This document shows, one piece after another, positions 17,654 to 58,325 of a DNA stretch of 64,000 nucleotides. Position 1 is the stretch's first letter, and every line of letters starts with the position of its first letter. Source of the stretch: Verrucomicrobiia bacterium. Its GTDB lineage: Bacteria; Acidobacteriota; Polarisedimenticolia; Gp22-AA2. Location of the stretch: positions 7,010 to 71,009 of the forward strand of contig DASRAU010000039.1 in NCBI GenBank assembly GCA_035638075.1, in the 5' to 3' direction. Under the pieces are notes generated by a model. That model was not told where the DNA came from. It searched no databases and saw only the letters and a list, made by a program, of their open reading frames with translations. A program made the position numbers and the translations under genes.

Positions 17654-17727
17654 GGGCACAACCATGCGAGGGATGGAGGCGTTCCGTTTCCCTCGAAGTG
17701 GGCGAGTGCAGTAGCATTCGCTCCGAT

Positions 17728-32877: not shown

Positions 32878-33285
32878 TCAGAGTCCCTTGATCTCGACCG
32901 CGGGCTGGACCTGCTTCAGCTCCGCCAGGAACTGGTGGAACTGATCGAACGGGCCGGCCAGGGTGACCGATCCCGCCTGGTGGCGGATGACGATGCGCTG
33001 CCAGCGTCCGGGGAGGGCCCGCACCGAGAGAATCTCCCGGGCGTGCAGGCGGACGCGCTGCACCCAGGAGATGAACTCCACGTCGTCGTTCTCGTGCACC
33101 TCGATCTCCCGCACCGCCGTGCAGAGCCGGTAGCCGTTGACCACCAGGGCGAAGAGCCAGACCGCCGCGAAGACGGTCTCGAAGGCGGAGCCCTGATCGC
33201 CCGGCTGGCGCGCGGCCAGCACCCAGACGCCGAGACCGGCCAGCAGGATGAGGATCAGCGCCGAGAACGGCGCCGTCCAGGACAT
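32878..33285 (-). CDS. Small membrane protein (hypothetical)
   Basis: N-terminal TM hairpin followed by a ~80-aa soluble domain. No known family. Confidence 0.45.
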   Translation of the reverse strand: MSWTAPFSALILILLAGLGVWVLAARQPGDQGSAFETVFAAVWLFALVVNGYRLCTAVREIEVHENDDVEFISWVQRVRLHAREILSVRALPGRWQRIVIRHQAGSVTLAGPFDQFHQFLAELKQVQPAVEIKGL

Positions 33286-33355
33286 CGCGAGCCGATACCG
33301 GGCGATGGTCACGTGGCGCATTGTAGCGGGACTGTCGCCGGCCCCGCGCGGGCCG

Positions 33356-35821
33356 TCAGGCGAGCGCGCCGTGATGGGGCGGCCGCCCGCCGCGCGGAAC
33401 CAGGGGGACGACGCGGTCGCGCGGCGGCAGCGCGTCGAGCAGCGCCAGGAGATCGCCCGGATCCACCGGTTTGACGAGGTGCCGGGCGAACCCCGCCTCT
33501 TCGCTGCGGTGCCGGTCGTGCTCCTGCCCCCAGCCGGTGACCGCGATCATCACCATGTCGCGTCCCCACGGCTGCTGGCGGATGCGGCGGCAGGCGTCGT
33601 AGCCGTTGAGCCGCGGCATGCCGATGTCGAGGAGCACCACGTCCGGGCGGACGCGCTCCGCCGCGGCGATGCCCTCTTCGCCGTCGAAGGCGATGTGGAC
33701 CTCGTGCCCGACGAACCCGAGGAGCCGCGCCAGGCTCTCGGCGTTGTCCTTGAGATCGTCCACGATCAGCACCCGGCGCTTCGCCGGGATCGTGGCCGGC
33801 CGCAGGACGCTCGCGGGCCGGGGCTCCGCCGATGCGGCGGCCGCGGCCGCCCGCGGCAGGCGGACAACGAACGTGCTGCCGCGCGCCAGGCCGGCGCTGC
33901 GCGCCTCGATGCTCCCGCCGTGCAGCTCCACGAGGGAGCGCGCCAGCGCCAGCCCCACCCCCAGGCCGAGCCGGGACCGTTCGCGGGACGCCTCCCCCTG
34001 GGAGAACATGTCGAAGATGCGCGGCAGCATCTCCGGCGCGATGCCGACGCCGGTGTCCGACACGGCGACCACGACCTGCGTCCCGGAGATCTCGCACTGC
34101 ACGCGGATGCGCCCTCCCTCCGGGGTGTAGCGCGCGGCGTTGTTGAGCAGGTTCAGGAACACCTGCGCCAGGCGCGCCGGATCGCCGTCCACCTGCACCG
34201 GCTCCTCCGGCAGGACCACCTCGAGCGCGTGCCGCGCTTCGGCGATGAGCGGCCGGCTGGTCTCGACCGCGTTCTGGAGGATCTCCCGCAGCGGCACCCT
34301 CGCGCGACGCAGATCGAACCGGTTGCGGCTGATGCGGCTGACGTCGAGCAGGTCGTCGAGCAGCCGCGCCATCTGCGCCACCTGCCGCTCGATCACCTCC
34401 CGTCCCCACGTCAGGTCGGGCTCGCGCGGCGCCTTCGCCTTGAAGATCTGCACCGCGTTGCGAATCGGCGCGAGCGGGTTGCGCAGCTCGTGGGCGAGGG
34501 TGGCCAGGAACTCGTCCTTGCAGCGGTCCGCGCTCTTCATCTCCGCCTCGTGGCGGAACCGGCCGATGAGGTCGGCGGTGTGCCGCGCCACCAGGTCGAG
34601 CAGACGCGCGTCCCGCTCCGACGCCAGGTGCGGTTGACGAAAGTGCGTCGAGAGCATCCCCAGGATGCTGCCGTCGGCGGCCTTCAGCGGCGTCGACTGC
34701 ACCGCCCGGATGCCGGCCGCGAGCATGACGGCGCGGTGCGGCTCGAACTCCGGGTCCCCGCCGACGTCCTCGACGTGCAGCCGCTCCCCCTGCGCCAGCG
34801 CCCGCGCGCAGGCCGAGCCCTCGCCGACGGCGACGTCCGCGAAGTGGTCGAGGAACTCCGGTCTCAGGCCGCGCTGCGCCGCGATGCGCAGGTGCCCGGT
34901 CGCGGCATCGAGGATCTGCACGTTGCCGCAGTCGGCGCCGCTGATGGCGATGGCCCCTTCGAGGACGTCGTCGAGCGCCGCCTCGAGGCTCTTCGCCGAC
35001 AGGAGCCGCGTGCTCAGCGCGTGCAGGTGGCGCATCGCCTCGAGCTCGGCGGCGAGCCGGCGGCCGCTCTCTGCCGCCGCGGCCAGCGCCTCCCGACGCT
35101 CGGTCACGTCGATGCCGGTCCCGACGTGCCCGAGGAAGCGGGATCGTTCCAGGCGGGGACGTCCGGACAGCTCGAACCAGCGGGTCGCGCCGTCCCGCCC
35201 GCGCAGCCGCGCCTCGTGCCGGAACGCGCCGCGCGTTGCGAGTGCCGTGCGCACGGCCGCGTCCCACCCGGCCCGATCCTCCGGATGGAGGAGGCGGTCC
35301 CACGCGTCATGCTCTGCGGAGCCCGGGTCGGCGCCGCTGCGGTACGGCGCATTGACCAGCACGCAACGGCCGGTCTCGTCGGTCATCCAGATCAGGACCG
35401 GCGCGGCGTCAGCCAGGGTGCGGAAGCGGGCTTCGCTCTCCTCGAAGCGCGCGCCGTGGCGTTCCGCCTCGCGGCGCGCCTCGTCGGCGCGGCGCCCCTC
35501 GCGGCGCATCGCCTCGCCGAAGCCGATGACGATCGCGGCGGTGATGCAATAGAGCGTCAGCGCCAGCAGACCGCCGGGAAGTCCCTGCGCCAGGGTGCCC
35601 CGCGGACTGACGAACAGCCAGGTCGCGGGCGCGTAGCCGAGGAGCGCGATGACGATCGCCGGACGCGCCCCGCCGACCCAGACCGCGAGCGCGATGGCGG
35701 CGTAGAGAGTCGAAAAAGGGTGCGCGTCCCCGATCCACGGATCGATGACGCCGCGCAGGAACAGGGCCGCGAACAGAGCGGCCAGCGAAGCCGTGTAAAC
35801 GCTCATCCGGTCACGGGTCAT
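33356..35821 (-). CDS. Hybrid sensor histidine kinase (TM–PAS–GAF–HisKA–HATPase_c–REC)
   Basis: Start at MTRDRMSVYT. Four TM helices, H-box FLATLAHELRNPLAPIRN, G-boxes, and a C-terminal receiver with DIGMP and TGWGQEHDRHRS. Confidence 0.9.
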   Translation of the reverse strand: MTRDRMSVYTASLAALFAALFLRGVIDPWIGDAHPFSTLYAAIALAVWVGGARPAIVIALLGYAPATWLFVSPRGTLAQGLPGGLLALTLYCITAAIVIGFGEAMRREGRRADEARREAERHGARFEESEARFRTLADAAPVLIWMTDETGRCVLVNAPYRSGADPGSAEHDAWDRLLHPEDRAGWDAAVRTALATRGAFRHEARLRGRDGATRWFELSGRPRLERSRFLGHVGTGIDVTERREALAAAAESGRRLAAELEAMRHLHALSTRLLSAKSLEAALDDVLEGAIAISGADCGNVQILDAATGHLRIAAQRGLRPEFLDHFADVAVGEGSACARALAQGERLHVEDVGGDPEFEPHRAVMLAAGIRAVQSTPLKAADGSILGMLSTHFRQPHLASERDARLLDLVARHTADLIGRFRHEAEMKSADRCKDEFLATLAHELRNPLAPIRNAVQIFKAKAPREPDLTWGREVIERQVAQMARLLDDLLDVSRISRNRFDLRRARVPLREILQNAVETSRPLIAEARHALEVVLPEEPVQVDGDPARLAQVFLNLLNNAARYTPEGGRIRVQCEISGTQVVVAVSDTGVGIAPEMLPRIFDMFSQGEASRERSRLGLGVGLALARSLVELHGGSIEARSAGLARGSTFVVRLPRAAAAAASAEPRPASVLRPATIPAKRRVLIVDDLKDNAESLARLLGFVGHEVHIAFDGEEGIAAAERVRPDVVLLDIGMPRLNGYDACRRIRQQPWGRDMVMIAVTGWGQEHDRHRSEEAGFARHLVKPVDPGDLLALLDALPPRDRVVPLVPRGGRPPHHGALA

Positions 35822-36201
35822 GAGATCTCGCCCCGTTTCGACCCTGGCGCCCGACCGGGTCGATGCGTTGCCGACCGCGAATGCAGTTGATACGTTGCGA
35901 GGGATTATAGGAAGGGTCAGTCGGACAGGGTCGTCCGGAATTACACGTAGAAAATCAGATTCTCCGGATCGCGCCCTGCGCACGCGCCGCCGATGCGGAA
36001 ATGACATTGCATCCGGACTCCTCGGTCCGGCGCCGCCGAGCGCCGCGACGCGCGCGTCCGCACGATGCGAAACGTTCCCGCATCTGAACGCCGTCCGAAA
36101 GCGGGACGCGGTGCGGCCTCCGCGTCGGGCATCACGCCGTGCTGCGCGTCACCGAAGTCTTGGAAACATCATCCCGCCGTCCTGCGTTGAGTGATGCTGT
36201 C

Positions 36202-36663
36202 ATGACAAGAGCCGGCGTCGTCATGATCCTCGCGATCCTCGCGGCCTCGATCGCCTGCCAGGCCAGGCCCCAGGCGAACCTCGACGCCGTCGAAGTGCGC
36301 ATGGTGGCACACGACACGACCTGGCAGGCGACTTATCTCCTCGCGGAGACGCACGGCGTCGCCGAGATCCCCACCGGACGCGAAGTGCACGTACCGGTCG
36401 GGGCCGAGGTCGTGCTGGCGCTCGCCAGCCGCGACTACATCAGTGATTTCACCCTGCCGGCGCTCGGGCTGCGCGATTTCGCCGCGCCCGGATTGCCTTC
36501 GGAGTTCCGCTTCGTCGCCGCGCGTCCGGGGCGCTATGCGCTGCGCGGCGACGAATTGTGCGGCCGGCCGCACGACGACCGCTCGCGCGGCTGGCTCGTC
36601 GTCGAGGATCCCGCTTCCTATCGCGCCTGGGTCGATCGGCGGACCCGGGCGGTGCTCGGTTGA
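36202..36663 (+). CDS. CoxB-like (cytochrome c oxidase subunit II-type) cupredoxin domain protein with a degenerate CuA site
   Basis: EVHVPVGAEVVLALASRDYISDFTLPALGL...GRYALRGDELCGRPHDD aligns to the COX2 region ...HSFWVPALG...GQCSELCGxxHxxM, but keeps only one Cys and one His. Signal/TM leader present. Track ORF 36139..36663. Confidence 0.6.
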   Translation: MTRAGVVMILAILAASIACQARPQANLDAVEVRMVAHDTTWQATYLLAETHGVAEIPTGREVHVPVGAEVVLALASRDYISDFTLPALGLRDFAAPGLPSEFRFVAARPGRYALRGDELCGRPHDDRSRGWLVVEDPASYRAWVDRRTRAVLG

Positions 36664-36764
36664 GCCGCCGGAAAAGAGGCGGCGAAACGCGTCCCGCGCC
36701 GGGACCTCCCGCTCGACCGCCGGCCTCGCCCCGTCCGGGGCGGCGTCTCGCCGGAACCCTGGTC

Positions 36765-39275
36765 ATGGCCGGTCTCCTGACGCTCGCGGTCGTCGTGGTG
36801 CTTCTGCGGGAGTACAACTGGCTCGGCGCCGCCGACCGGGACGACCGGCTGGTCAGTGCGGCCGCGGCCCAGGTGGGCCGAACGCGCGTTCTCATCCGCC
36901 TTCCCGAATTCGTTCTGGAGAACGCGCAGGGCGATTCGTCCGGACTTCTGGACCTGCGCGGGACGGTCTGGATCGCCGACTTCATCTTCACGCGCTGCGC
37001 CGGCACCTGCCCGATGATCACCGCCCGGATGGCCGGGCTCGCCGCAGCGTGCGCGTCCGACCCGGCCCTGAAGGACGTCCGCTTCGTCTCCATCAGCGTG
37101 GACCCGGAGTACGACCGCCCCGAGGTGCTTCGCGACTACGCCGAGCGCGTGCACGCCGATCCCGCGCGCTGGAGTTTCCTGACGGGCACGCGCGCCGCGG
37201 TGCGGGGTCTCGTGCGCGACGGCTTCAAGCTGCCGGTCGAAGACCAGGACGACAAGGCCATGCCCATCATGCACAGCCAGAGCTTCGTCCTCGTCGATCG
37301 GCAGGGTGGCGTGCGGAGCCTCGTCGATCCTCTCGGCGACCACGGGCTCGACGATGTGACGAAGGCGCTCCAGGCGATCGCCGCGGAGCCAAAGGTGGCC
37401 GACCTGCACTTCCCCGAGGATGCCGGCGATCCGCACTGGTACGAAGCGCGCCGCAACGAGCAGCAGGCGGCGGCGAACGGTCTGCGGGCGCCGCACGCCT
37501 TCCGGTTCACCGACCGGCTCGGGGCCGCGGGAATCCCGTTTCTCAACAAGGCCAGCGAGGACATCACCCGCTACTTCCGCCCGACCCACTACGACCACGG
37601 CACGGCGGTGGCGGCCGCCGACGTGGACGGCGATGGCCGCACGGACCTCTACTTCGTCAACCAGGCGGGACCGAACGGGCTCTACCGCAACCTCGGCGAC
37701 GGGCGGTTCGAGGACATCACCGCGACCGCCGGTGTCGCGGTCGGCGACCGCGCCTGTGTCGGGGCGTCCTTCGCCGACATCGACGGCGACGGAGACCCCG
37801 ACCTCTACGTCACCGCGGTCCGCGCCGGCAACCTGCTCTTCCGCAACGACGGGGGTGGACGCTTCACGGACATCACCACTTCAGCGGGCGTTGGCGGGCA
37901 CGGCGAGCACGCCTCCGGGGCGGTCTTCTTCGACGCCGACGGCGACGGGGACCTCGATCTCTTCGTCACCAGCGTCGGACGCTACACCGGCGAGGAGCGG
38001 CGCGCCGACGGGCTGTGGGTCTCCTTCCCCGACTCGTTCGCCGGACACCTGCACCCGGACCGCGGCGAAGCCTCATTGTTCTTCCGCAACCTCGGGGAGG
38101 GACGCTTCGAGGACGGCGCGCAGGACTCCGGACTGAAGCACGCCGCCTGGTCGGGAGACGCCATCCCGTTCGACGACGACGCCGACGGCCGGACCGATCT
38201 CTACGTTCTCTCGATGCAGGGGCACGACGAGCTGTGGCGCAACCTCGGGGGCGGGCGCTTCGAGCGGCGCGGGCGGCAGGTCTTCCCCGCCACGCCGTGG
38301 GGTTCGATGGGGGCGGCGGTGCTCGACTGGAACGGCGACGGCCGGCTCGACCTGTTCGTGACCGACATGCACACCGACATGGCGGGCGAGCTGCGCCCGG
38401 AGGACGAGCGCCGCAAGCACGACTGGGCCGCCATGTTCCCGCCGCGCTTCCTCGGGACCGACGGCAACCACGTCCTCGGCAACGCGCTGTTCACCGCCGA
38501 GGGAGGCGATCGCTTCACAGAGCAGTCGGACGCGGCCAACGCCGAGACCGGCTGGCCGTGGGGTCCGAGCGCCGCGGATCTCAACGCCGACGGCTGGACC
38601 GACCTCTTCGTGGCCGCCGGCATGAACTTCCCGCACCGCTACCACGGCAACGACGTGCTGCTCAACGAGCAGGGACGCCGGTTCGTCAACGCGGAGTTCC
38701 TGCTCGGTGTCGAGCCGCGGGAGAGCCGCGTGCGACCGTGGTTCACGCTCGACTGCGACGGGGCGGATGCCGGGCACCCCATCTGCCGCGGCGAGTCGGT
38801 GGCGGCGATGTCGCTCGATGGACAGGCGACGGCGGTCGCGCCCGGGCGGGCCGCGCTGCACGGCCCGGTCACCGTCTGGGCCGCGCGCGCCAGCCGGTCG
38901 AGCGTCGTCTTCGATCTCGACGGCGACGGCGACCTCGACGTCGTCACCAATGACTACGGCGACGTGCCCCAGGTCCTGGTCAGCGACCTGGCGCAGCGCG
39001 GTCCCGTCCGCTTCGTGACGGTGCGCCTGCAGGGGCGCGGGGCGAACCGCGATGGGCTCGGTGCGGTCGTGGCGCTCCGAGCCTCCGGCCGCACGCAACG
39101 CCAGGCGCTGAACGGCAAGTCCGGGTACCTTTCGCAGAGCAGCCTGCCGCTCTATTTCGGCCTCGGCGAGGCGGCGAGCGCCGAGTCGGTCACCGTCACC
39201 TGGCCGGGGGGCCAGACGCAGACGGTGCGCGGCCCGATCCGCTCCGGCACGCACCTCGTCATCCGCCAGCCGTAA
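36765..39275 (+). CDS. Fusion protein: N-terminal SCO1/SenC copper chaperone domain + FG-GAP/ASPIC (CRTAC1-like) beta-propeller with C-terminal UnbV_ASPIC domain
   Basis: TM anchor MAGLLTLAVVVVLL. SCO1 motifs FIFTRCAGTCP (CxxxC) and the conserved His in PIMHSQSFVLVD. Then repeated DxDGDGxxDLYV FG-GAP units, and GYLSQSSLPLYFGLG...VTVTWPGG (UnbV_ASPIC). The track ORF 36558..39275 upstream extension is Arg/Pro junk. Confidence 0.8.
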   Translation: MAGLLTLAVVVVLLREYNWLGAADRDDRLVSAAAAQVGRTRVLIRLPEFVLENAQGDSSGLLDLRGTVWIADFIFTRCAGTCPMITARMAGLAAACASDPALKDVRFVSISVDPEYDRPEVLRDYAERVHADPARWSFLTGTRAAVRGLVRDGFKLPVEDQDDKAMPIMHSQSFVLVDRQGGVRSLVDPLGDHGLDDVTKALQAIAAEPKVADLHFPEDAGDPHWYEARRNEQQAAANGLRAPHAFRFTDRLGAAGIPFLNKASEDITRYFRPTHYDHGTAVAAADVDGDGRTDLYFVNQAGPNGLYRNLGDGRFEDITATAGVAVGDRACVGASFADIDGDGDPDLYVTAVRAGNLLFRNDGGGRFTDITTSAGVGGHGEHASGAVFFDADGDGDLDLFVTSVGRYTGEERRADGLWVSFPDSFAGHLHPDRGEASLFFRNLGEGRFEDGAQDSGLKHAAWSGDAIPFDDDADGRTDLYVLSMQGHDELWRNLGGGRFERRGRQVFPATPWGSMGAAVLDWNGDGRLDLFVTDMHTDMAGELRPEDERRKHDWAAMFPPRFLGTDGNHVLGNALFTAEGGDRFTEQSDAANAETGWPWGPSAADLNADGWTDLFVAAGMNFPHRYHGNDVLLNEQGRRFVNAEFLLGVEPRESRVRPWFTLDCDGADAGHPICRGESVAAMSLDGQATAVAPGRAALHGPVTVWAARASRSSVVFDLDGDGDLDVVTNDYGDVPQVLVSDLAQRGPVRFVTVRLQGRGANRDGLGAVVALRASGRTQRQALNGKSGYLSQSSLPLYFGLGEAASAESVTVTWPGGQTQTVRGPIRSGTHLVIRQP

Positions 39276-39330
39276 AGCTCGCCCGCCGTGCATCGGCCCG
39301 GCGCGCCGGTCGTCGCGGCGGCGCGCGACG

Positions 39331-42300
39331 TCAGGCGCGCACGGGCGGACGCAGGCGGGCGAGCAGCTGTTCCATCGCCACGGGCTCGATCGGCTTCACG
39401 AGGTGCGAGTCGAACCCGGCGTCGCGCGAGCGGCGGCGATCCTCCTCCTGGCCCCAGCCGGTCAGCGCCACCAGCACGACCTCCCGCCCCCAGGGCCGCT
39501 CGCGCAGCCGCCGCGCTGTGTCGTAGCCGCTCAGGCGCGGCATGCCGATGTCGAGGACGACGAGGTCGGGCCGGAAGGTCTCGGCCAGGTCGAGCGCCTC
39601 CACCCCGTCGTGCGCGGTCTGTGTCACGTTCCCCATGAAGTTGAGCATGGCGGCGAGGCTGACGGCGGCGTCGTGGTTGTCGTCCACGATGAGGACCCGC
39701 CGCGGCTTGACCGCCTCGACCGACGCGCCTCCCTGGCCGCGCGCCGCGGGCATTTCCGGCAGGGCGGGCAGCCGCACCACGAACTCGCTGCCGCGGCGTC
39801 CGTCGCTGCGCGCCTCGACGCTGCCGCCGTGTGTCTCGACCAGCCCCTTCACGAGCGACAGGCCGATGCCGAGCCCGCCCTGCGCCCCCTCGAGCGTCCG
39901 ATCGACCTGCGTGAAGATGTCGAAGACCCTGGGGAGCATCTCCGGCGGGATGCCGATCCCGGTGTCGCGCACCCGGATGATCGCCTCGTCCCCCTGCCGG
40001 GCGACGACGAGCCCCACCTCGCCTCCCGGCTCGGTGTACTTGGCCGCGTTGTTCAAGAGGTTGCTGAACACCTGCGCCAGCCGGTTGACGTCGGCGACGA
40101 CGCCGATCGGCTCGTCCGGCAGCGTCACGGTGAACGTGTGTCCCCGCCGCTCGATCTCGGGGCGGCTCGTCTCCACCGCCAGGCGCACCGCCTCGCCGAG
40201 CGCGATCGGCTCGCGCCGCAGCTCGACCTTGCCGCGGTTGATGCGGCTCATGTCCATGAGATCGTCGATGAGCCGCACCATGAGGGTGAGCTGGCGCTCC
40301 ATCATGAGACGGGCCTCCTCGCGCGCCGCGGGGTCATGCTTCGCGAGCTTGAGGACGTGCAGGGCGCTGCGCAGAGGCGCCAAAGGGTTCCGCAGCTCGT
40401 GCGCCAGCACCGCCAGGAACTCGTTCTTGCGCCGGTCGGCCTCGGCGAGCGCCAGGCGGGCGAGGACGTGCCGCGAGATGTCGGTGAAGTAACAGACGAC
40501 GCCGTGCCGGCCTTCCGGCAGGGCGATGCGGTCGATGCGCCACTCGTAGTACTCGCGCACCTTCCGATCGAGCCGCTCCTCGACGCGCTCGGCCTCGAAA
40601 TAAGACTCCCCCGTGACCAGCGTGTGGCGGAAGCGCTCGACCACCTCGTCGGCGAACTCGCGCGGCCACAGCACCCGCATCACCTCGACGAAGTCGGCGC
40701 CGAGGAGGTCGCGGCCGAGCACGCCTTCGATGTCGCCGAAGGCCGGCCGCGCCTGGGGATTCACCTGCAGGATGCGCAGCCCGTCGTCGACGAGAAAGAC
40801 ACCGAGGGGGGCCGCGCTGAACAGGGCCTCGAAACGGTCGTGACTCTCCTGCAGCGCCTCGCCGGCCTCGCGGCGCATCCGCGCCATGGCCAGGTGCGCC
40901 GAGACCCGGGCCAGGAGCTCGCGGGCGCTGAACGGCTTGACGAGGTAGTCGTCGGCCCCCGCCTCCATGCCGGTGACCCGGCTCTCCTCGCCGGCGCGCG
41001 CCGACAGCATGATGACCGGGATGTCGCGCGTTTTTGCGTCGTCGCGCAGCCGCTTCAGCAGGCCGAACCCGTCGAGCCGCGGCATCATCACGTCGGTCAG
41101 GATGAGATCGGGCGCCGACCGGGCCACGGCGGCGCAGGCCGCTTCGCCGTCCGCCACCACTTCGAGGCGATAGCGCCCGTGGAGGAGCCGCGCCAGGTAT
41201 TGCCGCATGTCGGCGTTGTCATCGGCCACGAGGACCCGCGGCCGCCCCGTTCCGGCGTCGCCGAAAGGCCGGTCTTCCGATGCGGACACGGCCGCGGCGC
41301 CGGGCTCGTCGTAGACGTCGAGCGGCGAGACCCAGCGCAGCGCCTCCTCGATGTAGCTGTTCGCGCGCCCTGCGGCGGGCCGGGCGGCCCGCTCCTCGAC
41401 GCCGGCCTCGTCGACGATCTGATCGGCCGGCAGGTGGGCCGAGCCGGGAGGCACGACCACCGTGAAAGTCGTCCCCTTCCCGGGCTCGCTCGTGGCGGAG
41501 ATGGTCCCGCCGTGCAGACGCACCAGCTCCTGCACCAGGGCCAGCCCGATGCCGCTGCCTTCGTGCGTCCGGCCGCGGGCGTTCTGCACCCGGTGAAAAC
41601 GCTCGAACAGGCGCGGCATCTCGGACGCCGGGATGCCGGTGCCGGTGTCCCGCACCTCGAGCTGCACGTGCCCATCCTCGCGCTCGCGCAGGTCGACCGC
41701 GATCCCGCCGTCGAAGGTGAACTTGAAGGCGTTCGAGAGGAGGTTGAGAACGATCTTCTCCCACATCTCCCGATCGACGAAGGTGGGCGTCGAGGGCGGG
41801 GCGCACTCGACCCGAAGCGTGAGCCCCGCCCGTTCCACCGCGGCGCGGAACATGCTCGCGAGGTCCGCCGTGAACGGGCCGAGGTCGGTCGGCTGGTAGC
41901 GCGCCCGCACCCGGCCCGCCTCGATGCGCGAGAAATCCAGCAGCGTGTTCACCAGCCGCAGCAGCCGCTGGCCGTTGCGGTGCACGACCTCGAGCTCGTC
42001 GTCGTACGAGCCGCGATCGAGCAGGTCCTCGATCGGCCCGAGCATCAGGGTGAGCGGCGTGCGGAACTCGTGGCTGACGTTGGAGAAAAACGCCGTCTTG
42101 GCGCGGTCGAGCTCCGCCAGCGCCTCCGCGCGGCGTTTTTCCTCTTCGTAGGCGCGCGCATTGGCGATCGCGGTGGCGACCTGGGTGCGCACGAGGTCGA
42201 AGAAGTCGCGGTAGAAATCGTTCCACTGCAGGCGTGACGAGAGGCCCGCGACCATCAGCCCGGCCGGCTCCGAAGGCTTGCTCGAGGGGATCGGCACGAC

Positions 42301-43155
42301 GACCGCGCTGTGCGGCGCGTCGGTCCACGGCCCCTGCGGCACGCCCGGGAACCGCGCCCGCAGATCGTCCACCAGCTGGATGGCCCCGGACACCTTCGCG
42401 AGGCGAAAGGGCCAGCCGCCGTCCGCCGCCGCGTCGAGATCGACGAAGCGCGGCGCGAACGAGACGGTGATGGTCGGATCGCCCAGGCCGGACGAGCCGA
42501 CCAGCCGCGCCTGCCTCCCCTCGTCCTCGAGCAGGTAGAAGAGCGAGAAGGGCACGTCCCGGTCGTGCCTCCGGAGCGTCTCGGCCGCGAACAGGCACGC
42601 CTCCTCCGCCGTCTTCGCCTCGACCAGGCGGCTGCCGAGATCGCGCAGCGTCAGCCCGCGCCGCTCCCCGATCACCTTCTCGGTGATCTCGTGCACCGTG
42701 GCGAGAACGCCGCCGATGCCATTGGGGGCGGTCTCGTCCGGCACCGGGCTGTAGGCGATGGTGAAGTGCGACTCCTCGAGGAAGCCCTGCCGGTTGATCT
42801 CGAGGAAGATGTCCTCGTTCCACGTCGGCGGCCCGCCCAGGAACGGCGTGTCGATGAGCGGGCCGATGACGTGCCAGATCTCCTTCCAGCACTCGCTCGC
42901 GGGAACGCCCAGCACCCGCTCCGGGTGCTTGTTCCCCGGGATCGGTCGATAGGGATCGTTGTAGAACTGGATGTACCGGGGCCCCCACCAGAGGAGCTGG
43001 GGGAAGCGGTTGGCGAGCATGATGCGCAGCATCGTGCGCAAGGCCGGCGACCACGACTCCGCCGGCCCCAGCGGCGTCCGCGCCCAGTCGAAGGCGCGGA
43101 TGCGCTCGCCCATCTCGCCTCCCCCGACCAGGAATCCGAGAGCGTCTTCCTTCAT
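39331..43155 (-). CDS. Double hybrid histidine kinase: PAS–GAF–HisKA–HATPase–REC–PAS–HisKA–HATPase–REC (1274 aa, no TM)
   Basis: Two complete H-box/ATPase units (SHEFRTPLTLM and AHELRNPLAPLRSAL) and two receivers (DVMMPRLDG and DIGMPRLSG...TGWGQEEDRRRS). Confidence 0.9.
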   Translation of the reverse strand: MKEDALGFLVGGGEMGERIRAFDWARTPLGPAESWSPALRTMLRIMLANRFPQLLWWGPRYIQFYNDPYRPIPGNKHPERVLGVPASECWKEIWHVIGPLIDTPFLGGPPTWNEDIFLEINRQGFLEESHFTIAYSPVPDETAPNGIGGVLATVHEITEKVIGERRGLTLRDLGSRLVEAKTAEEACLFAAETLRRHDRDVPFSLFYLLEDEGRQARLVGSSGLGDPTITVSFAPRFVDLDAAADGGWPFRLAKVSGAIQLVDDLRARFPGVPQGPWTDAPHSAVVVPIPSSKPSEPAGLMVAGLSSRLQWNDFYRDFFDLVRTQVATAIANARAYEEEKRRAEALAELDRAKTAFFSNVSHEFRTPLTLMLGPIEDLLDRGSYDDELEVVHRNGQRLLRLVNTLLDFSRIEAGRVRARYQPTDLGPFTADLASMFRAAVERAGLTLRVECAPPSTPTFVDREMWEKIVLNLLSNAFKFTFDGGIAVDLREREDGHVQLEVRDTGTGIPASEMPRLFERFHRVQNARGRTHEGSGIGLALVQELVRLHGGTISATSEPGKGTTFTVVVPPGSAHLPADQIVDEAGVEERAARPAAGRANSYIEEALRWVSPLDVYDEPGAAAVSASEDRPFGDAGTGRPRVLVADDNADMRQYLARLLHGRYRLEVVADGEAACAAVARSAPDLILTDVMMPRLDGFGLLKRLRDDAKTRDIPVIMLSARAGEESRVTGMEAGADDYLVKPFSARELLARVSAHLAMARMRREAGEALQESHDRFEALFSAAPLGVFLVDDGLRILQVNPQARPAFGDIEGVLGRDLLGADFVEVMRVLWPREFADEVVERFRHTLVTGESYFEAERVEERLDRKVREYYEWRIDRIALPEGRHGVVCYFTDISRHVLARLALAEADRRKNEFLAVLAHELRNPLAPLRSALHVLKLAKHDPAAREEARLMMERQLTLMVRLIDDLMDMSRINRGKVELRREPIALGEAVRLAVETSRPEIERRGHTFTVTLPDEPIGVVADVNRLAQVFSNLLNNAAKYTEPGGEVGLVVARQGDEAIIRVRDTGIGIPPEMLPRVFDIFTQVDRTLEGAQGGLGIGLSLVKGLVETHGGSVEARSDGRRGSEFVVRLPALPEMPAARGQGGASVEAVKPRRVLIVDDNHDAAVSLAAMLNFMGNVTQTAHDGVEALDLAETFRPDLVVLDIGMPRLSGYDTARRLRERPWGREVVLVALTGWGQEEDRRRSRDAGFDSHLVKPIEPVAMEQLLARLRPPVRA

Positions 43156-43198
43156 GAAGGCTCCGCGCGGCGCGGCGCCGCGAAAACGAAGAGCGGTC

Positions 43199-46113
43199 CT
43201 AGCCGGTCTTGTTCCGGCCGTTGGCCGGGCTCAGAGTTCCCAGAAGCCGAAGCAGGTCGTTCGAATCCGCGGGCTTGACGAGGTGCGCGTCGAAACCGGC
43301 GTCGTGGGATCGCCGCCGGTCCTCGTCCTTGCCCCACCCGGTCACCGCGACCAGGAGCACGTCGCGCCCCCAGTCCTGCTGCCGGATGCGGCGCGCCGCA
43401 TCGTAGCCGTTCATCCGCGGCATGCCGATGTCGAGGAAGACGACCTCGGGCCGGAAGCGCTCGGCCGTCGCCAGCGCCTCGACCCCGTCGTGGGCCGTGA
43501 TCGCCTCGTGACCGGTGACGCGTAAGAGGGTCGCCAGGGAGTCGGCCGAATCGACGTTGTCGTCCACGACGAGGGCGCGCCGCGCCGCGTGTTTCGTCGC
43601 CGCCGTCTTCGGGAGCAGGCGAACCCCGGGCCGGGCGTGCCGCTCGAACTCGGAGAGCGGCTTCAGGACCGGCAGCCGCACCACGAACTCGCTGCCCCGG
43701 CCGGGCCCGTCGCTCGTGGCGAGAACGCTCCCGCCGTGCAGCTCGACGAGACGCCGCACCAGCGTCAGCCCGATGCCGAGGCCGCCCTGGGCCCGCTCGA
43801 TCGAGCGATCGACCTGGTTGAACATGTCGAAGATGTTCCCCAGCCGGTCGGACGGAATGCCGAGCCCGGTGTCGCGCACCCGCATGACCACTTCGGCCCC
43901 GTGGCGCTCGGCCGACAGCCAGACCTGCCCGCCGGCCTCGGTGTACTTGCAGGCATTGTTCATCAGGTTGTTGAGGACCTGGGCCAGGCGCACGGGATCC
44001 GCCTGCAGCCAGATGGGCTCCGGCGGCAGGGTGACGGTGATCTCGTGCCGGCGCTCCTCGGCGAGCGGCCGCGCCGTCTCGACCGCGTGGGCCACGACGG
44101 CCGAAAGCTCCACGGGCTCGCGCCGCAGCTGCAGCGTGCCGCGGGTGATGCGCGACACGTCGAGCAGATCGTCCACCAGACGGATGAGATGGTGCAGCTG
44201 GCGCTCGAGCACGCCGCGCAGGCGCTCCCCGCCGATCCCCGGCGTTCCTTCCGACAGCTTCATGACCATGAGCGAGTTGCGCATCGGCGCCAGGGGGTTG
44301 CGCAGCTCGTGCGCCAACATGGCGAGGAACTCGTCCTTGCGGCGGTCGGCATCGCGCAGCGCCTCTTCGTGGCGCCGGCGTTCGATGAGGTCGGCGGCCT
44401 GCCGCGCCAGGATGTCGAGATTGCGGAGATCCCGCTCCGGCGGGACATGGGGCCGGCTCCAGTGCGTCGAGATCATCCCCACCGTGTTGCCGGCGCGCGA
44501 GACGAGCGGGGTCGTCTGCACCGCCCTGATCCCGGTCTCGCGGTACACCAGGAGCTCCGGCGATCCGGCGAGGGAAGCGCAACGCTCGGTGTCGGGGACC
44601 AGAACCCGTCCCCCCGTCTTCAGTGCCCGCCCGCACGCCAGCGCGGAGTTGCAGCGCACCCGCTGCCAGCTCCGCTCCGCCAGCGCGCTGAACCCGCGGC
44701 ACGCGAGCAGCCGCAGCTCGGTGCCGCCGTCCCCTCCCGGCTCGACCGCCTGCATGCTGGCGAACTCCGAGCGCATGAGGGCGGCCGCGGCGTCGATCAC
44801 CCTGCGGTACAGGGTCTCCTCCCCGATCTCGCTCAGGAGCTCGGCCCCGAGGGTCTGCAGGAGCCGCGCGTCGGATTCGGCCTGGCGCAGGTCGGCGTCC
44901 GCCTGGTCCCGCTCGATGGCGATGGCGATGAGCTGGCGCGCCACGAACCCGATCTGCGGATTCCCCGGTTCGGGATTGCCGGGCTCGCGCCGGTACATGG
45001 CGAAGGTGGCGAGCGGCTCCCCGGTGGCGCCCCGCACCACCGTCGAGAGGACCGACCGCAGCCCGCTCGCGAGCGCCAGCTCGCGCCAGCGGCCCGAAAA
45101 GCGGGCATCGCTCCTGATGTCCGCGACCAGGACGTCCTTTTTTTCCTGCAGGGCCAGGCAGCAGGGCCCGGCCGCAGGCGGCTGGATCGGCGCCGCGTGC
45201 ATCGCGGCCATGTAGTCGAACGGCAGGCTCGGCCCCGCCCCCGCCCGCAGCGTGCCGGTGACGGAATCCACCAGGTGGATGGAGCACAGCAGCCCCGGCT
45301 CCTGCTCTTCGACCAGGCGCACCAGGTCGGCCAGCACCTCGGAAAGCGCCACGCGCCGGGCGATCTTCTCGAGGACGTGGCGCTGCCCTTCCATGAACGC
45401 CTCGGCCCGCTTGCGTTCGGTGATCTCCTGCACCGTGCCGCGCAGGCCGATCACCTTCCCCTGCGCGTCCTGGATCGCCTCGCCGCGCATCGCCACCGCG
45501 ATCCGCTCGCCTTTCCGCAATGCCTCGAGGTCGAGGTGGAAGCCGTGGCCGGTGCGCATCGCATCCTTCATGGCGGCGTCGATGCGGAGCCACGAGTCGT
45601 GCGGATAGAGGGTGTCGTCCTGGTCCGCGAGGCGCGGCAGAACAGCCCCGTCCGGCAACCCGAAGATGCGCCGCAGCTCGTCCGAGACGAAGGAACGCCC
45701 GGTGGCGGCACGCCACTCCCAAGACCCGAGGCGCGCCAGGCGCTGCGCCTCGCCGATGACCGCCCGCTCGCGAACCCGGGCCGCACGCAATCCCTCCCCG
45801 AAAGCGATGATGACGGCGCTCGACAGGAAAAAGGCGCCGAACCCGATCGGGTCACGGGTGCCGTGAATCCCGGCGGCCGCGCGGGCCGCGGGGAAGAGCA
45901 GGTCGCACAGCAGCCACCCCACCCCCATGGCCAGGAGGCCGGCGCGATAGCCGCAGAGCCAGGCGCCGAAGGCCACCGCCGCGAACAGGGTCACGAGGGG
46001 AAACTGGTCGCCGATCCAGGGCGTCAGGAGCCAGCGCACCCCGACGGCGACGGCGGTGGCGGCCAGCGTCCCGAGGTAGAGCCATTCCTTCGACGGCGAT
46101 CGATTCCACATGG
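43199..46113 (-). CDS. Hybrid sensor histidine kinase (TM–PAS–GAF–GAF–HisKA–HATPase_c–REC)
   Basis: Start at MWNRSPSKEWLY (TM region). H-box LAMLAHELRNPLAPMRN. Receiver DIGMPRMNG...TGWGKDEDRRRS. The 5' part of track ORF 43199..46705 is non-coding-like. Confidence 0.9.
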
Positions 46114-46322: not shown

Positions 46323-47372
46323 GTGATGCCACCGATCTTCCATGCGCGCCGGCGAGGCCTTCTGTCCTCGCGCTGGATCGCCCTTCCGGCCCTGCTGCTC
46401 TCCATCGGGTCGGCGGAGGCCGGGCGGCGCTCCCTCGTGGCCCGGGACCTGGGAACGTTCGAAGGAGACGACACCCAGGGCACGGGGATCAACGACCGGG
46501 GACAGATCGTCGGTGTCGGCGGCTCGGGTGCGACCCAGAGCGCCTTCCTCATGGAGGCCGGGGGCACGGTGAGCCTGGGCCCCTTCGCCGCCATCGACAT
46601 CAACAACGCCGGCCAGATCCTGCTCCAGACGGTGGTCGGCAACCCGGACGATCCGTCCTCGTGCTTCCTGCGCCAGCCCGACGGCACCCTCGTCGAGCTG
46701 AACACTCCGGCCGGGTCGCAGTGCTACGGCACCGACTTGAACGACCGTGGCCAGGTGGTCGGAGCGGTGCAGCGCCTGGTCGGAACCCAGCGGGTGACCA
46801 GCGGCTTTCTCTGGGAGGCGGGGACCTACAGCGATCTCGGCACGCTCGGCGGCGATTTCGTCCAGGCGAACGCCGTCAACGAGCTGGGTCAGATCACCGG
46901 CACCGCGACGTTGTCCTCTTCGGGGTATCAGCACGCGTTCTTCTGGGACCGTGGCGTGATGACCGATCTCGGCTCACCGGGGGGTCTCTGGAGCCAGGGG
47001 CGTGCCATCAATGATCGCGGGCAGGTCGCCTTCTCCAGCGGCGCGCACGTGTACTTCTGGCAGGCCGGAGCTCTGACCGATCTCGGCACCCTGGGAGGTC
47101 CCGACGTGCCGGAGCAGGTGAGCGTGCCGCTCGGCCTGAACGATCGCGGCCAGCTGCTCGTCGCCGTCTATGACATCCCGGCGGCGCTGTACCGCTGGGG
47201 CATCTGGGCGTCCGGTCGCTTCACGCCGCTGCCCAGCCTCGGAAGCGGCCTTCCGACCGCCAACCGCATCAACGAGCAGGGACAGGCGATCGGGACCGAT
47301 CGCACCACCACGTCGTCGATCCGCCACATGGTCGTCTGGAGCGCGGAAGCGGTCCGCGGCCGCCGCCGCTAA
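46323..47372 (+). CDS. Secreted HAF-repeat protein
   Basis: Signal peptide. About 8 tandem units of the form FLWEAGTYSDLGTLGG...NDRGQVVG (HAF extracellular repeat). Confidence 0.8.
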   Translation: MMPPIFHARRRGLLSSRWIALPALLLSIGSAEAGRRSLVARDLGTFEGDDTQGTGINDRGQIVGVGGSGATQSAFLMEAGGTVSLGPFAAIDINNAGQILLQTVVGNPDDPSSCFLRQPDGTLVELNTPAGSQCYGTDLNDRGQVVGAVQRLVGTQRVTSGFLWEAGTYSDLGTLGGDFVQANAVNELGQITGTATLSSSGYQHAFFWDRGVMTDLGSPGGLWSQGRAINDRGQVAFSSGAHVYFWQAGALTDLGTLGGPDVPEQVSVPLGLNDRGQLLVAVYDIPAALYRWGIWASGRFTPLPSLGSGLPTANRINEQGQAIGTDRTTTSSIRHMVVWSAEAVRGRRR

Positions 47373-49561: not shown

Positions 49562-49654
49562 CCAACCTCCCCTGACGGGCGAACGCCCTCGCTGGCACTA
49601 CCGTTGCGACACGTTCTGATCGCGATGCACCGTTTTCAACGAAAGGAGTGTGCC

Positions 49655-50404
49655 ATGCGAAAGCTGATGTTCGTACCCGCTCTCCTGGTGGCCGGGCTGC
49701 TGGCCGCGCCGCTGGTCACGGCCAACGACAAAGACAAGACGTATGAGGAGAAGGACAAGAAAGAGGTGAAGGTGTCGGCCGAGGACAAGCAGAAGGCCGA
49801 GGCGCGTCTCACGGAGGCCGAAGAGGTCCTGAAGGCTTCGGTGACGGCTCCCGATCAGGGGATTCCGAAGAACCTGCTCGAGAGGGCCGAGTGCGTCGGC
49901 GTGTTCCCCGGCGTGAAGAAGGGCGCTCTCATCGTCGGCGGCGCCGGCGGCAAGGGCGTCTTCACCTGCAAGAACGGCAACGGGATGACCGGGCCGGCCT
50001 TCTTCAAGATCGGCGGCCCCAGCATCGGCTGGCAGGCCGGCGTCGAGTCGGCCGACCTCGTCCTGCTGATCATGAACAAGGAAGGGATCGACAAGCTCCT
50101 GACCGACAAGTTCAAGATCGGCGCGGATGCGACGGCCGCTGCGGGCCCGGTGGGCCGCAACACCCAGGCTTCCACCGACGCGCTGCTGCACTCGCAGATC
50201 CTGTCCTGGTCGCGCACGCGCGGCCTGTTCGCGGGCATCTCCCTCGAGGGGATGGTCATGACGCAGGACAAGGAGGACAACGCGTCCATCTACGGCAAGG
50301 CGGTCGAGGCGCGTGAGATCCTGACCACCGACACGCTGCAGGTCCCTCAAGTCGCCAAGTCGTTCGTGAAGACCACGGAGCAGTACGTCCGGCCGGTGTC
50401 GTGA
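49655..50404 (+). CDS. Ysc84 / DUF500 (SH3YL1-like lipid-binding) domain exported protein, paralog 1
   Basis: RBS AAAGGAG. Signal peptide. Conserved CVGVFPGVKKGALIVGGAGGKGVF...GPVG...SWSRTRGLFAGISLEG blocks of the Ysc84 family. Confidence 0.8.
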   Translation: MRKLMFVPALLVAGLLAAPLVTANDKDKTYEEKDKKEVKVSAEDKQKAEARLTEAEEVLKASVTAPDQGIPKNLLERAECVGVFPGVKKGALIVGGAGGKGVFTCKNGNGMTGPAFFKIGGPSIGWQAGVESADLVLLIMNKEGIDKLLTDKFKIGADATAAAGPVGRNTQASTDALLHSQILSWSRTRGLFAGISLEGMVMTQDKEDNASIYGKAVEAREILTTDTLQVPQVAKSFVKTTEQYVRPVS

Positions 50405-52789: not shown

Positions 52790-52988
52790 GACACACCTCG
52801 ATTCGCATTCACCTCGTGCATGCGACGTGCCATCGAAGACGCGCCCCCGGCCATCCTCACCCGCGCGGACCGATCGGCCGTCGGCCCATGACTGACAGGC
52901 CTTTGCGGGGAACTGGCGATGGAGACACAGCGCCATCCGGCGCACAGTGGCGATGACGAAAGAATCGAACCAAGAAGGGAGTCCACGC

Positions 52989-53738
52989 ATGCGCAAAACG
53001 ATCCGAATCCTTCCCGCTGTTCTCGTCGCCGGCCTGCTCGCCACGCCGGTGATGCTGCGGGCGGGCGACACGCACACGAGCGACGACGGGTACAAGTCCA
53101 GCCAGGCGAGCAAGTCCGCGAAGAAGGACGCCAAGACCGCGGCGAAGCTGTCCGACGCCGAAGCGGTGCTCAAGGCGGCGGCCGAGTCGAAAGACGAAGG
53201 CATTCCGCGCGACCTGCTCGAGAAGGCGAAGTGCGTCGGCGTCTTCCCGAGCTTCAAGAAGGTCGCCCTCGGAGTCGGCGGCGAAGGCGGCAAGGGCGTC
53301 TTCACGTGCCGCACCGACCACGGCATGAGCGGCCCGGCCATCTACAAGATCGGCGGCGGCAGCGTCGGCTGGCAGGCCGGCGTCAAGGAGGCCGACCTGG
53401 TGCTCCTCGTCATGGACGACGAAGCGATGAACAAGCTCCTGAACGACGATCACGTCGAGATCGGCACCGACGTCTCGGCCACGGCCGGTCCGGTCGGGCA
53501 CGATGCGAAGATGACCGACACCCAGTCGAGCGCTCAGCTTCTGGCGTGGTCACGGACGCACGGCGCCTTTGCGGGGGCGTCCCTCGATGGCCTGGGGCTG
53601 AAGCAGGACGACGACGACAACGCGGAGCTCTACAACAAGACCGTCGGGGCCAAGGAAATCCTGACCAGCGACACGGACACCCTTCCGGTGCCGCAGGTGG
53701 CGCAGTCCTTCGTGAAGACGACCGAGCAGTACATGTAG
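52989..53738 (+). CDS. Ysc84 / DUF500 domain exported protein, paralog 2
   Basis: About 60% identical to the gene at 49655 and carries the same conserved blocks. Confidence 0.8.
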   Translation: MRKTIRILPAVLVAGLLATPVMLRAGDTHTSDDGYKSSQASKSAKKDAKTAAKLSDAEAVLKAAAESKDEGIPRDLLEKAKCVGVFPSFKKVALGVGGEGGKGVFTCRTDHGMSGPAIYKIGGGSVGWQAGVKEADLVLLVMDDEAMNKLLNDDHVEIGTDVSATAGPVGHDAKMTDTQSSAQLLAWSRTHGAFAGASLDGLGLKQDDDDNAELYNKTVGAKEILTSDTDTLPVPQVAQSFVKTTEQYM

Positions 53739-57228: not shown

Positions 57229-57846
57229 ATGTCCTATGAAAACGACCCCCGCGCCACCAATCCCTCGATGGCGCGGACGGAGCGGCGGGCGGAAAGCCCG
57301 GTTCCGGAAGACAGCGGCTCCGGGGCTCCGGCACCGATGACCCGGCAGGATTGGGACAAGGCGCTGGAGGAACTGCACCCCGTGAGCTTTCGCTGGGCCG
57401 TGACCTGCTGTCGCGGGGATCGCGAGGAGGCTCGAGACGTGCTGCAGAGCGTGTACGTGGACGTGCTGGACGGGCGGGCCCGGTTCGACGGCCTCGCCTC
57501 GGTCCAGACGTGGCTCTTCGCCGTCATCCGCCGCACCGCCGCCTCGCGGCGGCGCCGCGGCCTCGTCCGCAGCGTGCTGCTCGGGCAGTGGGCGCGGCGC
57601 CGCCCCGAACCGGTTTCGCCCGACCCGGCCGCGCGCCTGGAGAAGGCCGAGCGCGTCGCCCGCATCCGCGAGGCGATGCGGACCCTGTCGGCGCGCCAGC
57701 GCCAGGTCCTCGAGCTGGTCTTCCATCACGAACTCACCATCGAGGAGGCCGCCGGTGTCCTGGGCATCGGCGTGGGGAGCGCCCGCACGCACTACGAGCG
57801 CGGCAAGCGCGCCCTCCACGATCGCCTCACGGAGGCGGGCCTGTGA
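57229..57846 (+). CDS. ECF (sigma-70 group IV) RNA polymerase sigma factor
   Basis: Region 2 (VLQSVYVDVLDG...WLFAVIRR) and region 4 HTH (LELVFHHELTIEEAAGVLGIGVGSARTHYERGKRAL). Confidence 0.9.
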   Translation: MSYENDPRATNPSMARTERRAESPVPEDSGSGAPAPMTRQDWDKALEELHPVSFRWAVTCCRGDREEARDVLQSVYVDVLDGRARFDGLASVQTWLFAVIRRTAASRRRRGLVRSVLLGQWARRRPEPVSPDPAARLEKAERVARIREAMRTLSARQRQVLELVFHHELTIEEAAGVLGIGVGSARTHYERGKRALHDRLTEAGL

Positions 57847-58325
57847 CCCGGGAGAACGAGCGGCTGCGACGTGTCTTCCACGAGATGCACGATGCCGACC
57901 TTCCGGCGCCGGCGTATGAATCCCCCGACGCTGCGTCGGGCGCACCGGCCGCGTCAGCCTCCACTGCGCGGCCGGTGCGGAAGTCCGCCGTCGGCCGGCC
58001 GGGGCGCACCCCGGTGTTCGCGCGCGCGGCCTGGGCCTTCGCCGCGGCCGCGGCGGCCTGCGCGGTCGTCCTGGCGCTTCGCGACGGCGGCCTGCTCCAC
58101 CCGGCCCCCGGCGCGCCCACGACACCCGGCGAGGACGAGACCGTGCAGCTCGCCGCCACCCTCACCACCTGGGAGGCGCCCACCGATTTCCTCTTGACCA
58201 CACCCGGCGCGGAGTTCCTGCAATCGGCTCCGCGCCTCGGCACCGGAATGGAGACGCTGTCGGGTGACCACGGCGACCTCCTGCAGAACGACAACAACGA
58301 GAACGACACGGAGGTGTACCAATGA
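57843..58325 (+). CDS. Putative anti-sigma factor (single-pass membrane protein)
   Basis: The GTG overlaps the sigma stop (GTGA). Cytoplasmic N-terminus, one TM (AAWAFAAAAAACAVVLAL), short periplasmic tail. Confidence 0.6.
   Translation: MTRENERLRRVFHEMHDADLPAPAYESPDAASGAPAASASTARPVRKSAVGRPGRTPVFARAAWAFAAAAAACAVVLALRDGGLLHPAPGAPTTPGEDETVQLAATLTTWEAPTDFLLTTPGAEFLQSAPRLGTGMETLSGDHGDLLQNDNNENDTEVYQ

Follow-up and report, generated by a model that had tools for sequence, protein, structure and literature searches.

A cytoplasmic dual hybrid histidine kinase from a large family with an undescribed, predicted PAS-GAF sensor, and its two membrane-anchored kinase neighbours

Here we describe three hybrid histidine kinase genes, HK1, HK2 and HK3, encoded close together in a 64,000-nucleotide stretch of contig DASRAU010000039.1 (positions 7,010 to 71,009; assembly GCA_035638075.1), which we call the window. 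The middle gene product, HK2, is a further dual hybrid kinase of the transmitter-receiver-transmitter-receiver (TRTR) type, and it belongs to a large family whose sensor is undescribed. We propose, with a probability of roughly 60%, that HK2 consists of a strongly conserved input cassette (a PAS-GAF sensor, kinase a and its receiver, REC-a) to which a second, b-type kinase-receiver unit is attached by a helical linker followed by a PAS domain, and that HK1, HK2 and HK3 descended separately and became neighbours only in this lineage, not as a recently duplicated set. An earlier, sequence-only reading of the same DNA was largely right about the anatomy of these genes and wrong about their evolution.

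The three kinase genes and the architecture of HK2

The G+C content of the window is about 70%, at which long spurious open reading frames (ORFs) are common. The three kinase ORFs have a third-position G+C (GC3) of 0.89-0.93, as expected for real genes, and coincide with the gene calls (821, 1274 and 970 aa) on a near-identical public contig, ENA contig ERZ27256645:k141_1959494, which differs from the window at 4 of 23,825 bases (30670, 37371, 38764 and 45266, the last being synonymous in HK3). The boundaries first given for HK1 and HK2 are right; the end first given for HK3, 46113, lies 2 nt out of frame, and the gene starts at 46111. The genes and the parts of HK2 are as follows.

33356..35821, minus strand: HK1, membrane-anchored hybrid histidine kinase, 821 aa (Pfam, public gene call, catalytic motifs)
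39331..43155, minus strand: HK2, cytoplasmic dual (TRTR) hybrid histidine kinase, 1274 aa (Pfam, identical deposited protein, full-length homologs)
43156..43198, minus strand: HK3-HK2 intergenic spacer, 43 nt, with GGAG 5 nt before the HK2 ATG
43199..46111, minus strand: HK3, membrane-anchored hybrid histidine kinase, 970 aa (Pfam, start codon and frame, gene call, hydropathy)
42121..43155, minus strand: predicted PAS-GAF sensor, HK2 aa 1-345 (AlphaFold model, Foldseek, conservation)
41431..42120, minus strand: kinase core of module a, HK2 aa 346-575, with H362 in the H-box SHEFRTPLT
40876..41247, minus strand: REC-a, HK2 aa 637-760, with D688 and K740
40471..40836, minus strand: internal PAS domain, HK2 aa 774-895, between REC-a and kinase b (Pfam PAS_4 4.9e-8, PAS_8 1.3e-7)
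39751..40455, minus strand: kinase core of module b, HK2 aa 901-1135, with H919 in the H-box AHELRNPLAP
39334..39705, minus strand: receiver b (REC-b), HK2 aa 1151-1274, with D1202, K1254 and the TGWGQ motif

Pfam reads HK2 as HisKA-HATPase-REC-PAS-HisKA-HATPase-REC behind a 345-aa N-terminus, and the protein has no hydrophobic segment (maximum 19-residue Kyte-Doolittle value, KD19, 1.39). Together with the fold search described below, these results bear out the earlier view of the middle gene product as a cytoplasmic PAS-GAF-HK-REC-PAS-HK-REC chain. No frameshift splits the 1274-aa ORF, and a protein deposited from a metagenome-assembled genome (MAG) matches it at 100% identity. In all four kinase-receiver modules of the three proteins, HisKA and HATPase_c score above the Pfam cut-offs and the H, N, G1, F and G2 boxes are present; Response_reg also scores above its cut-off, with the acidic pair (DD), the phospho-Asp, the S/T residue and the Lys in place, and D263/D264, D307 and K359 (alignment numbering) are invariant across the four-module alignment. 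Across 59 full-length homologs, drawn from several phyla, the catalytic positions of HK2 vary hardly or not at all. Judged from these residues, both kinases and both receivers of HK2 are probably functional. The quintet of REC-a is response-regulator-like, including its Tyr (DDYLVKPF); its best PDB matches are the PleD and PhoB receivers, and its helix alpha5 continues into the linker. No named NCBIfam kinase equivalog (TorS, ArcB, BarA, LuxQ, RcsC, HrmK, LvrA, EpsF and others) reaches its whole-protein cut-off, and all matches fall far short; TorS, for instance, scores 391 with HK2 against a cut-off of 676, even with both modules contributing.

There is nothing unusual about HK1 and HK3, which are membrane-anchored hybrid kinases of the DUF4118-PAS/GAF kind. 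By Pfam, HK1 is DUF4118-PAS-GAF-HisKA-HATPase-REC (catalytic residues H444, D732 and K784) and HK3 is DUF4118-PAS-GAF-GAF-HisKA-HATPase-REC (H601, D894 and K946), so that each of the three genes does end in a HisKA-HATPase-REC module. DUF4118, the domain of KdpD-type membrane-anchored kinases, scores 48.8 bits in HK1 and 43.9 bits in HK3 against a cut-off of 28.4, and each protein has 3-4 hydrophobic segments within it (at aa 8-105 in HK1); of the features earlier ascribed to the outer two kinases, the PAS/GAF sensors are borne out by Pfam and the membrane anchoring by Pfam and hydropathy. Of additional note, a predicted two-helix membrane protein of 147 aa is encoded 34 nt downstream of HK1 (32878..33321, minus strand). 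It has no family match in Pfam or NCBIfam, keeps its position beside HK1 in two related contigs (L002 and L087) and may be co-transcribed with HK1.

The HK2 sensor

Sequence searches could not name the N-terminal sensor of HK2: aa 1-345 gave no Pfam match and no PDB chain match at E<=10, and a fold search alone worked. We modelled this region with AlphaFold from an alignment of the 59 homologs. The model (mean predicted local distance difference test score, pLDDT, 94; predicted template modelling score, pTM, 0.87) contains a PAS-like unit, a long helix and a GAF-like unit. Its top 40 and more Foldseek matches are bacteriophytochrome PAS-GAF(-PHY) modules (probability 1.0, E about 1e-9) over 320-350 aligned columns, but with template modelling (TM) scores of only 0.35-0.38 and 11-15% identity. 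On this model the HK2 N-terminus is a PAS-GAF bidomain at the level of the fold, and at that level the PAS-GAF start earlier proposed for the middle gene holds. The sensor has many invariant Trp residues and a K-H-P motif across the homologs, and a Cys is nearly invariant at one position alone, C187 of the GAF part.

We also considered whether this sensor is that of a bacteriophytochrome. Only a PAS and a GAF domain fit before the H-box of H362, leaving the PHY domain absent; aa 1-88 contain no Cys for the N-terminal chromophore site; and the region has no match to the phytochrome PAS_2, GAF and PHY Pfam models at E<=10. Therefore, HK2 is not a phytochrome.

Origin of the kinase-receiver modules

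The sequence-only reading had counted four paralogous modules with near-identical motifs and concluded that their paralogy was recent. Our comparison shows three modules with the motif set in question, those of HK1 and HK3 and module b of HK2 (HK2b), which are 52-58% identical in amino acid sequence. Module a of HK2 (HK2a) is about 31% identical to each of them and has other motifs throughout (SHEFRTPLT, DVMMPRLDG and LSARAGEE...DDYLVKP). Even among the three, the exact motif strings fit HK2b alone: HK1 deviates in TGWGQEHDRHRS and GFARHLVKP, and HK3 in TGWGKDEDRRRS.

The claim of recent paralogy fared no better. When the HK2b module (379 aa) was searched against 1.84 billion representatives of 50% clusters, 236,465 of them matched at E<=1e-30. 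Among the best 150 of these 236,465, more than 30 single-stretch matches from proteins of diverse lengths are 60-68% identical to the whole of HK2b, and both neighbours, HK3 (58%) and HK1 (52%), fall below them. Within a pool of 249 b-type modules, those of HK1, HK2b and HK3 rank 64th-161st among each other's relatives. In a neighbour-joining tree of 62 b-type leaves with 100 bootstraps, each window module groups with its own orthologs from related contigs (99-100% bootstrap), and there is no clade exclusive to the three: the smallest one holding all of them takes in 50 of the 62 leaves, and at least 38 in every replicate. DNA identity between the modules is 63-78%, with a longest near-identical run of 38 nt. 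Measured against this global background, the modules are no closer to each other than to unrelated loci's kinases, and on the identity ranks, the tree and the DNA comparison we reject a duplication that was both local and recent; the DNA shows no sign of gene conversion. The motifs in common are marks of the whole family, present in most representatives (AHELRNPLAP in 75%, TGWG in 62%, GF[DN]xHxxKP in 84%).

Spread and variation of the dual-kinase family

Full-length HK2 homologs of about 1,250-1,320 aa (98-100% coverage, 54-94% identity) are present in MAGs labelled Polarisedimenticolia, Gemmatimonadetes and Gemmataceae and also in Trinickia, Cupriavidus, Pararobbsia and Tundrisphaera. Even when module b alone was used for retrieval, 92 of 149 representatives proved to be a-then-b proteins; a b-type module stands alone in 55 of the 149. 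The linkers between a and b range from about 0 to 1,061 residues. Their lengths fall into stepwise groups, which may differ in the number of PAS domains (none, one, two or more).

We also scanned species-representative genomes with the HK2 sensor; the counts that follow are among the matches listed (80 species genomes). Sensors of the HK2 type occur in at least 10 phyla. After the sensor, the same ORF continues as T-R-T-R (T, transmitter; R, receiver) in 17 genomes, as T-R-T in about 25 and as T-R in 20. The front end is 58-73% identical across phyla, compared with 27-61% for the second kinase, which fits a conserved input cassette combined with interchangeable output kinases. Where REC-a is fused directly to the second kinase, 10 of 14 non-myxobacterial proteins have 37, 44 or 51 residues from the receiver Lys to the kinase His; in the myxobacterial ones this distance is exactly 50 residues, in 22 of 22. 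Such discrete spacings fit a continuous helix running from REC-a into the second kinase. Our literature search found no experimental work on this family or its sensor; the dual-kinase design as such is old, common and widespread, and its type was already catalogued in 2010.

These data bear directly on whether HK2 could be two independent two-component units in one chain, fused for co-localisation or co-expression and with no flow from a to b. Each unit is complete with its catalytic residues intact, the internal PAS domain could sense independently and drive kinase b, and each half is also found alone, the a-cassette in 20 of the 80 listed genomes and the b-type module in the 55 representatives mentioned above. 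However, the order sensor-kinase a-REC-a-(PAS)n-kinase is fixed, the reverse not being seen among the listed loci; about half of the listed sensor cassettes carry a second kinase directly after REC-a; and in some proteins without a PAS domain, helix alpha5 of REC-a runs straight into the DHp domain of kinase b at the discrete spacings. Receivers are also present in almost all two-transmitter proteins (PMC3018481). We therefore consider two independent units improbable.

The family contains several further arrangements. In Myxococcota there are proteins of about 2,000 aa with two tandem sensor-kinase-receiver-kinase units (P0015-P0053, L069), and on one metagenome contig (P0022) two dual kinases adjoin each other. 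A MAG assigned to a Methanotrichaceae archaeon (L010) encodes a 1,851-aa protein of the order kinase a-REC-a-kinase-receiver, with a sensor 54% identical to that of HK2, reflecting either horizontal transfer into a methanogen or contamination of the bin. As for the source of HK2 itself, the identical deposited protein (P0001) is labelled 'Verrucomicrobiae bacterium', and its nearest relatives, at 88% and 73% identity, carry the label 'Candidatus Polarisedimenticolia', a group that we take to belong to Acidobacteriota; the Verrucomicrobiae label of this MAG may be wrong.

Proposed mechanism

We regard the following mechanism as the most likely one for HK2, with each phosphotransfer in it, as well as the direction of control, being inferred. 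The PAS-GAF sensor, on receiving a signal, would set the autophosphorylation of kinase a on H362, and the phosphoryl group would then pass from H362 to D688 of REC-a. Phosphorylated REC-a would in turn control kinase b, either by transfer to H919, as in TodS of Pseudomonas, or by allostery through the helix formed by alpha5 and the linker, and kinase b would phosphorylate D1202 of REC-b. The output of REC-b, and likewise of the HK1 and HK3 receivers, would need an unlinked histidine phosphotransfer (Hpt) protein and a response regulator. The T-R-(PAS)-T-R order is that of TodS-type TRTR proteins (PMC3018481, PMC4321377), and by analogy with them the middle protein could be a multi-step relay, as had been suggested.

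The receivers of the two halves of HK2 differ in character. REC-a always lies between the two kinases in family members and has the S...Y allosteric pair of the response-regulator type; REC-b (GFDSHLVKP) lacks this pair and, as in the receivers of HK1 and HK3, its Y/F switch position is occupied by His. It would be reasonable to regard REC-a as the coupler, because of this placement, the S...Y pair and the discrete Lys-to-His spacing. The criteria for the S...Y pair, and for the FxSGY 'FATGUY' motif of intermediary receivers, have been set out previously (PMC9981736). The TGW motif of REC-b and of the HK1 and HK3 receivers bears a resemblance to the latter, which we note as a lead only.

Another possibility is that kinase b has no autokinase activity and serves as an Hpt-like phosphotransfer station, like RedE of Myxococcus xanthus, making HK2 a four-step relay. 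It has been proposed that a second transmitter can replace an Hpt domain, and T2 of the Red system lacks autophosphorylation (PMC3018481). Against this, module b has intact N, G1, F and G2 motifs, which scarcely vary among the 59 homologs, and keeping these ATP-binding motifs argues against a purely Hpt-like role; moreover, the b-type module is the sole kinase in HK1, in HK3 and in many single-module proteins, where it has to autophosphorylate. We regard this station model as very improbable for HK2.

Several points weigh against our proposal of a two-tier HK2 with separately descended neighbours. Phosphotransfer from a to b, allosteric control and an absence of a-b communication are indistinguishable here. 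No Hpt protein, response regulator or further kinase was found in the 64-kb window, either with phmmer kinase and receiver queries over all ORFs or with Pfam on about 45 genes. The sample behind the heptad-like spacing is small, and 4 of its 14 cases lie outside the pattern. The receiver variant DIGMPR is shared by all three b-type receivers of the window and found in 11% of representatives, which could hint at a common partner or at a closer kinship than the tree shows; the identity comparison, too, was one with global databases. Finally, unlike TodS, the family has no regulator gene next door as a rule: REC genes lie within 1.5 kb at only 1 of 17 TRTR, 1 of 24 TRT and 1 of 20 TR loci. An expectation drawn from the TodS model, that TRT loci would be enriched in neighbouring REC genes relative to fused ones, found no support in these counts, which show no enrichment.

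Genomic neighbourhood

Between HK1 and HK2 lie two genes on the opposite strand.

36139..36663, plus strand: COX2-like cupredoxin, divergent from HK1; the public gene call begins at about 36202, and the start is uncertain
36765..39275, plus strand: fusion of SCO1/SenC, FG-GAP repeats and UnbV_ASPIC (Pfam), convergent with HK2; start between 36558 and 36765

The COX2-like gene product scores 33 bits with Pfam COX2 and 65.9 bits with NCBIfam CoxB, whose cut-off is 147.7. By eye, three of the six canonical CuA ligands are missing, with YISDF in place of HSF and GDELCGRPHDDR in place of CxELCGxxHxxM, and the CuA ligand set appears degenerate. The SCO1/SenC domain of the second protein keeps its CxxxC motif. 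The earlier statement that the kinases bracket a coxB-like/SCO1-fusion pair stands as to position, while the fusion hinges on a single base: the window has a single fused ORF because position 37371 is C (CAG, Gln), and the ENA contig has T there (TAG stop), giving separate SCO1 (202 aa) and FG-GAP/ASPIC (626 aa) genes. Four related contigs carry the fusion intact (841-879 aa), and because these relatives keep it, the TAG is probably derived or an error.

Related contigs with HK2 at 81% and 73% identity keep the order HK3-HK2-(SCO1 fusion)-(COX2-like)-HK1. At 70% and 69% identity the block is rearranged, with the COX2-like/SCO1 pair still beside HK2 and now divergent from it; once HK2 identity is down to 62%, and likewise in other phyla, quite different genes adjoin HK2. 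The three kinases and the COX2-like/SCO1 pair are thus genuinely linked, but in this lineage alone. A common function could lie behind the linkage, perhaps one to do with copper, although this is speculation. The 43-nt gap between HK3 and HK2 was correctly described before; we found no terminator-like site in it, and its length is 48 nt in contig L002 and 28 nt in L087.

A rival view makes the three genes recent paralogs that act as one phosphorelay or hub, possibly controlling the COX2-like/SCO1 pair, with their b-receivers converging on one Hpt protein. The convergence of several hybrid kinases on one Hpt protein is an established design (LuxU, HptB), and all three genes carry the same b-type module with the same minority DIGMPR variant. 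The short HK3-HK2 gap without a detected terminator points the same way, as does the neighbourhood of HK2, COX2-like gene and SCO1 fusion, which is kept despite rearrangement in 5 of 5 contigs with HK2 at 69% identity or more, one kinase being divergent from the pair in every one of the five. Against it, the identities, ranks, tree and DNA comparison contradict a recent duplication. The clustering is also gone at 62% HK2 identity, and the HK2 homologs of other phyla stand as orphans; HK3 lies apart from HK2 in one contig (L003); and no Hpt protein or response regulator was found nearby. We consider such a single system of recent paralogs unlikely, though a little less so than two independent units within HK2, and retain separate descent with a two-tier HK2.

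We also put forward a broader picture, tentatively and with more doubt than belief. The PAS-GAF-kinase a-REC-a module might be a widespread kinase-driving input cassette (at least 10 phyla, about 60-70% identical) whose output is an interchangeable second kinase, forming a two-tier cascade; in this lineage it might be wired, together with two membrane-anchored b-type kinases, to an extracytoplasmic pair of copper proteins.

Elsewhere in the window, a P1B-type ATPase with YHS and heavy-metal-binding (HMBD) domains is encoded at 21358-23748 (minus strand), and an ECF-type sigma factor stands next to a 'Metal_resist' protein at 57229-58891 (plus strand). With these genes and the SCO1/COX2-like pair, the region has something of a metal (copper) character. 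A further signalling pair, unrelated to the kinases, consists of adjoining SpoIIE/PP2C-type phosphatase genes at 15733-16893 and 16945-19413 (plus strand), the second with FHA and GAF domains. Two paralogous Ysc84-domain genes about 3 kb apart (49604-50401 and 52947-53735, plus strand) and a HAF-repeat protein gene divergent from HK3 (46323-47372, plus strand) are conserved in L002.

Significance

Most of what the sequence-only reading singled out is commonplace: soil bacteria are rich in hybrid kinases, the motifs are those of the family at large, and genome surveys had counted two-transmitter kinases by 2010. The possible use of the present analysis lies in the family picture of a highly conserved cytoplasmic PAS-GAF sensor, for which there is neither a Pfam model nor a solved relative and whose own kinase and receiver couple it to a second kinase. 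This family recurs from Acidobacteriota to Cyanobacteria, Actinomycetota and Burkholderiales, with Massilia aerilata, Trinickia symbiotica, Nostoc minutum and Cupriavidus among the carriers in culture.

Comparison with known systems

Among solved structures, module b with REC-b matches PDB 6qrj best ('Hybrid kinase', E 7e-37). This protein, ShkA of Caulobacter, has one kinase core and a pseudo-receiver, whereas HK2 has two kinase cores and, as its motifs suggest, two apparently functional receivers. For signalling onward from its receiver, ShkA depends on a separate Hpt protein. Eukaryotic dual histidine kinases (Cryptococcus Tco2, the Dictyostelium DhkD group, Klebsormidium) share with HK2 the presence of two kinase-receiver units per chain, a likeness of architecture only; they have been described as polyphyletic and of obscure function (PMC6324907).

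In bacteria, the 2010 census of Williams and Whitworth found two transmitters in 51 of 4,650 hybrid kinases and counted 262 TRTR foci (PMC3018481). Its authors proposed that receivers integrate signalling between transmitters and that the DHp domain of the second transmitter plays the role of an Hpt domain. The TRTR class of the census resembles HK2 in having two transmitters that alternate with receivers in one polypeptide; it is a class without a characterised family, and neither the PAS-GAF-kinase a-REC-a cassette nor a breadth of at least 10 phyla is described there (PMC3018481). RedCDEF of M. xanthus follows the same T-R-T-R logic, in which a receiver acts on a second transmitter (PMC3018481), but it is spread over four genes and its T2 does not autophosphorylate, whereas module b of HK2 keeps all ATP-binding motifs.

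Our literature search for a characterised bacterial TRTR kinase in a single chain returned TodS-type proteins and the 2010 census only. For TodS, a His1-Asp1-His2-Asp2 relay of the TRTR type is proven (PMC4321377, citing Busch et al. 2009). Like HK2, TodS and TmoS of Pseudomonas are cytoplasmic and soluble, with the order sensor-kinase 1-receiver-PAS-kinase 2 and both kinase cores intact. The likeness is one of domain order, with homology beyond the generic kinase domains not demonstrated. The final receiver of the TodS system resides in a separate, adjacent regulator, TodT, while in HK2 REC-b is fused and there is no adjacent regulator gene. The sensors differ as well: the predicted PAS-GAF bidomain of HK2 has no sequence match in the PDB at E<=10, although crystal structures of the aromatic-binding PAS1 of TodS have been reported (PMC4861429). 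Since TodS is the sole dissected relay of this type that our search found, a soluble and widespread second model such as the HK2 family would help to explain why kinase-on-kinase relays are built by cells that might employ Hpt domains.

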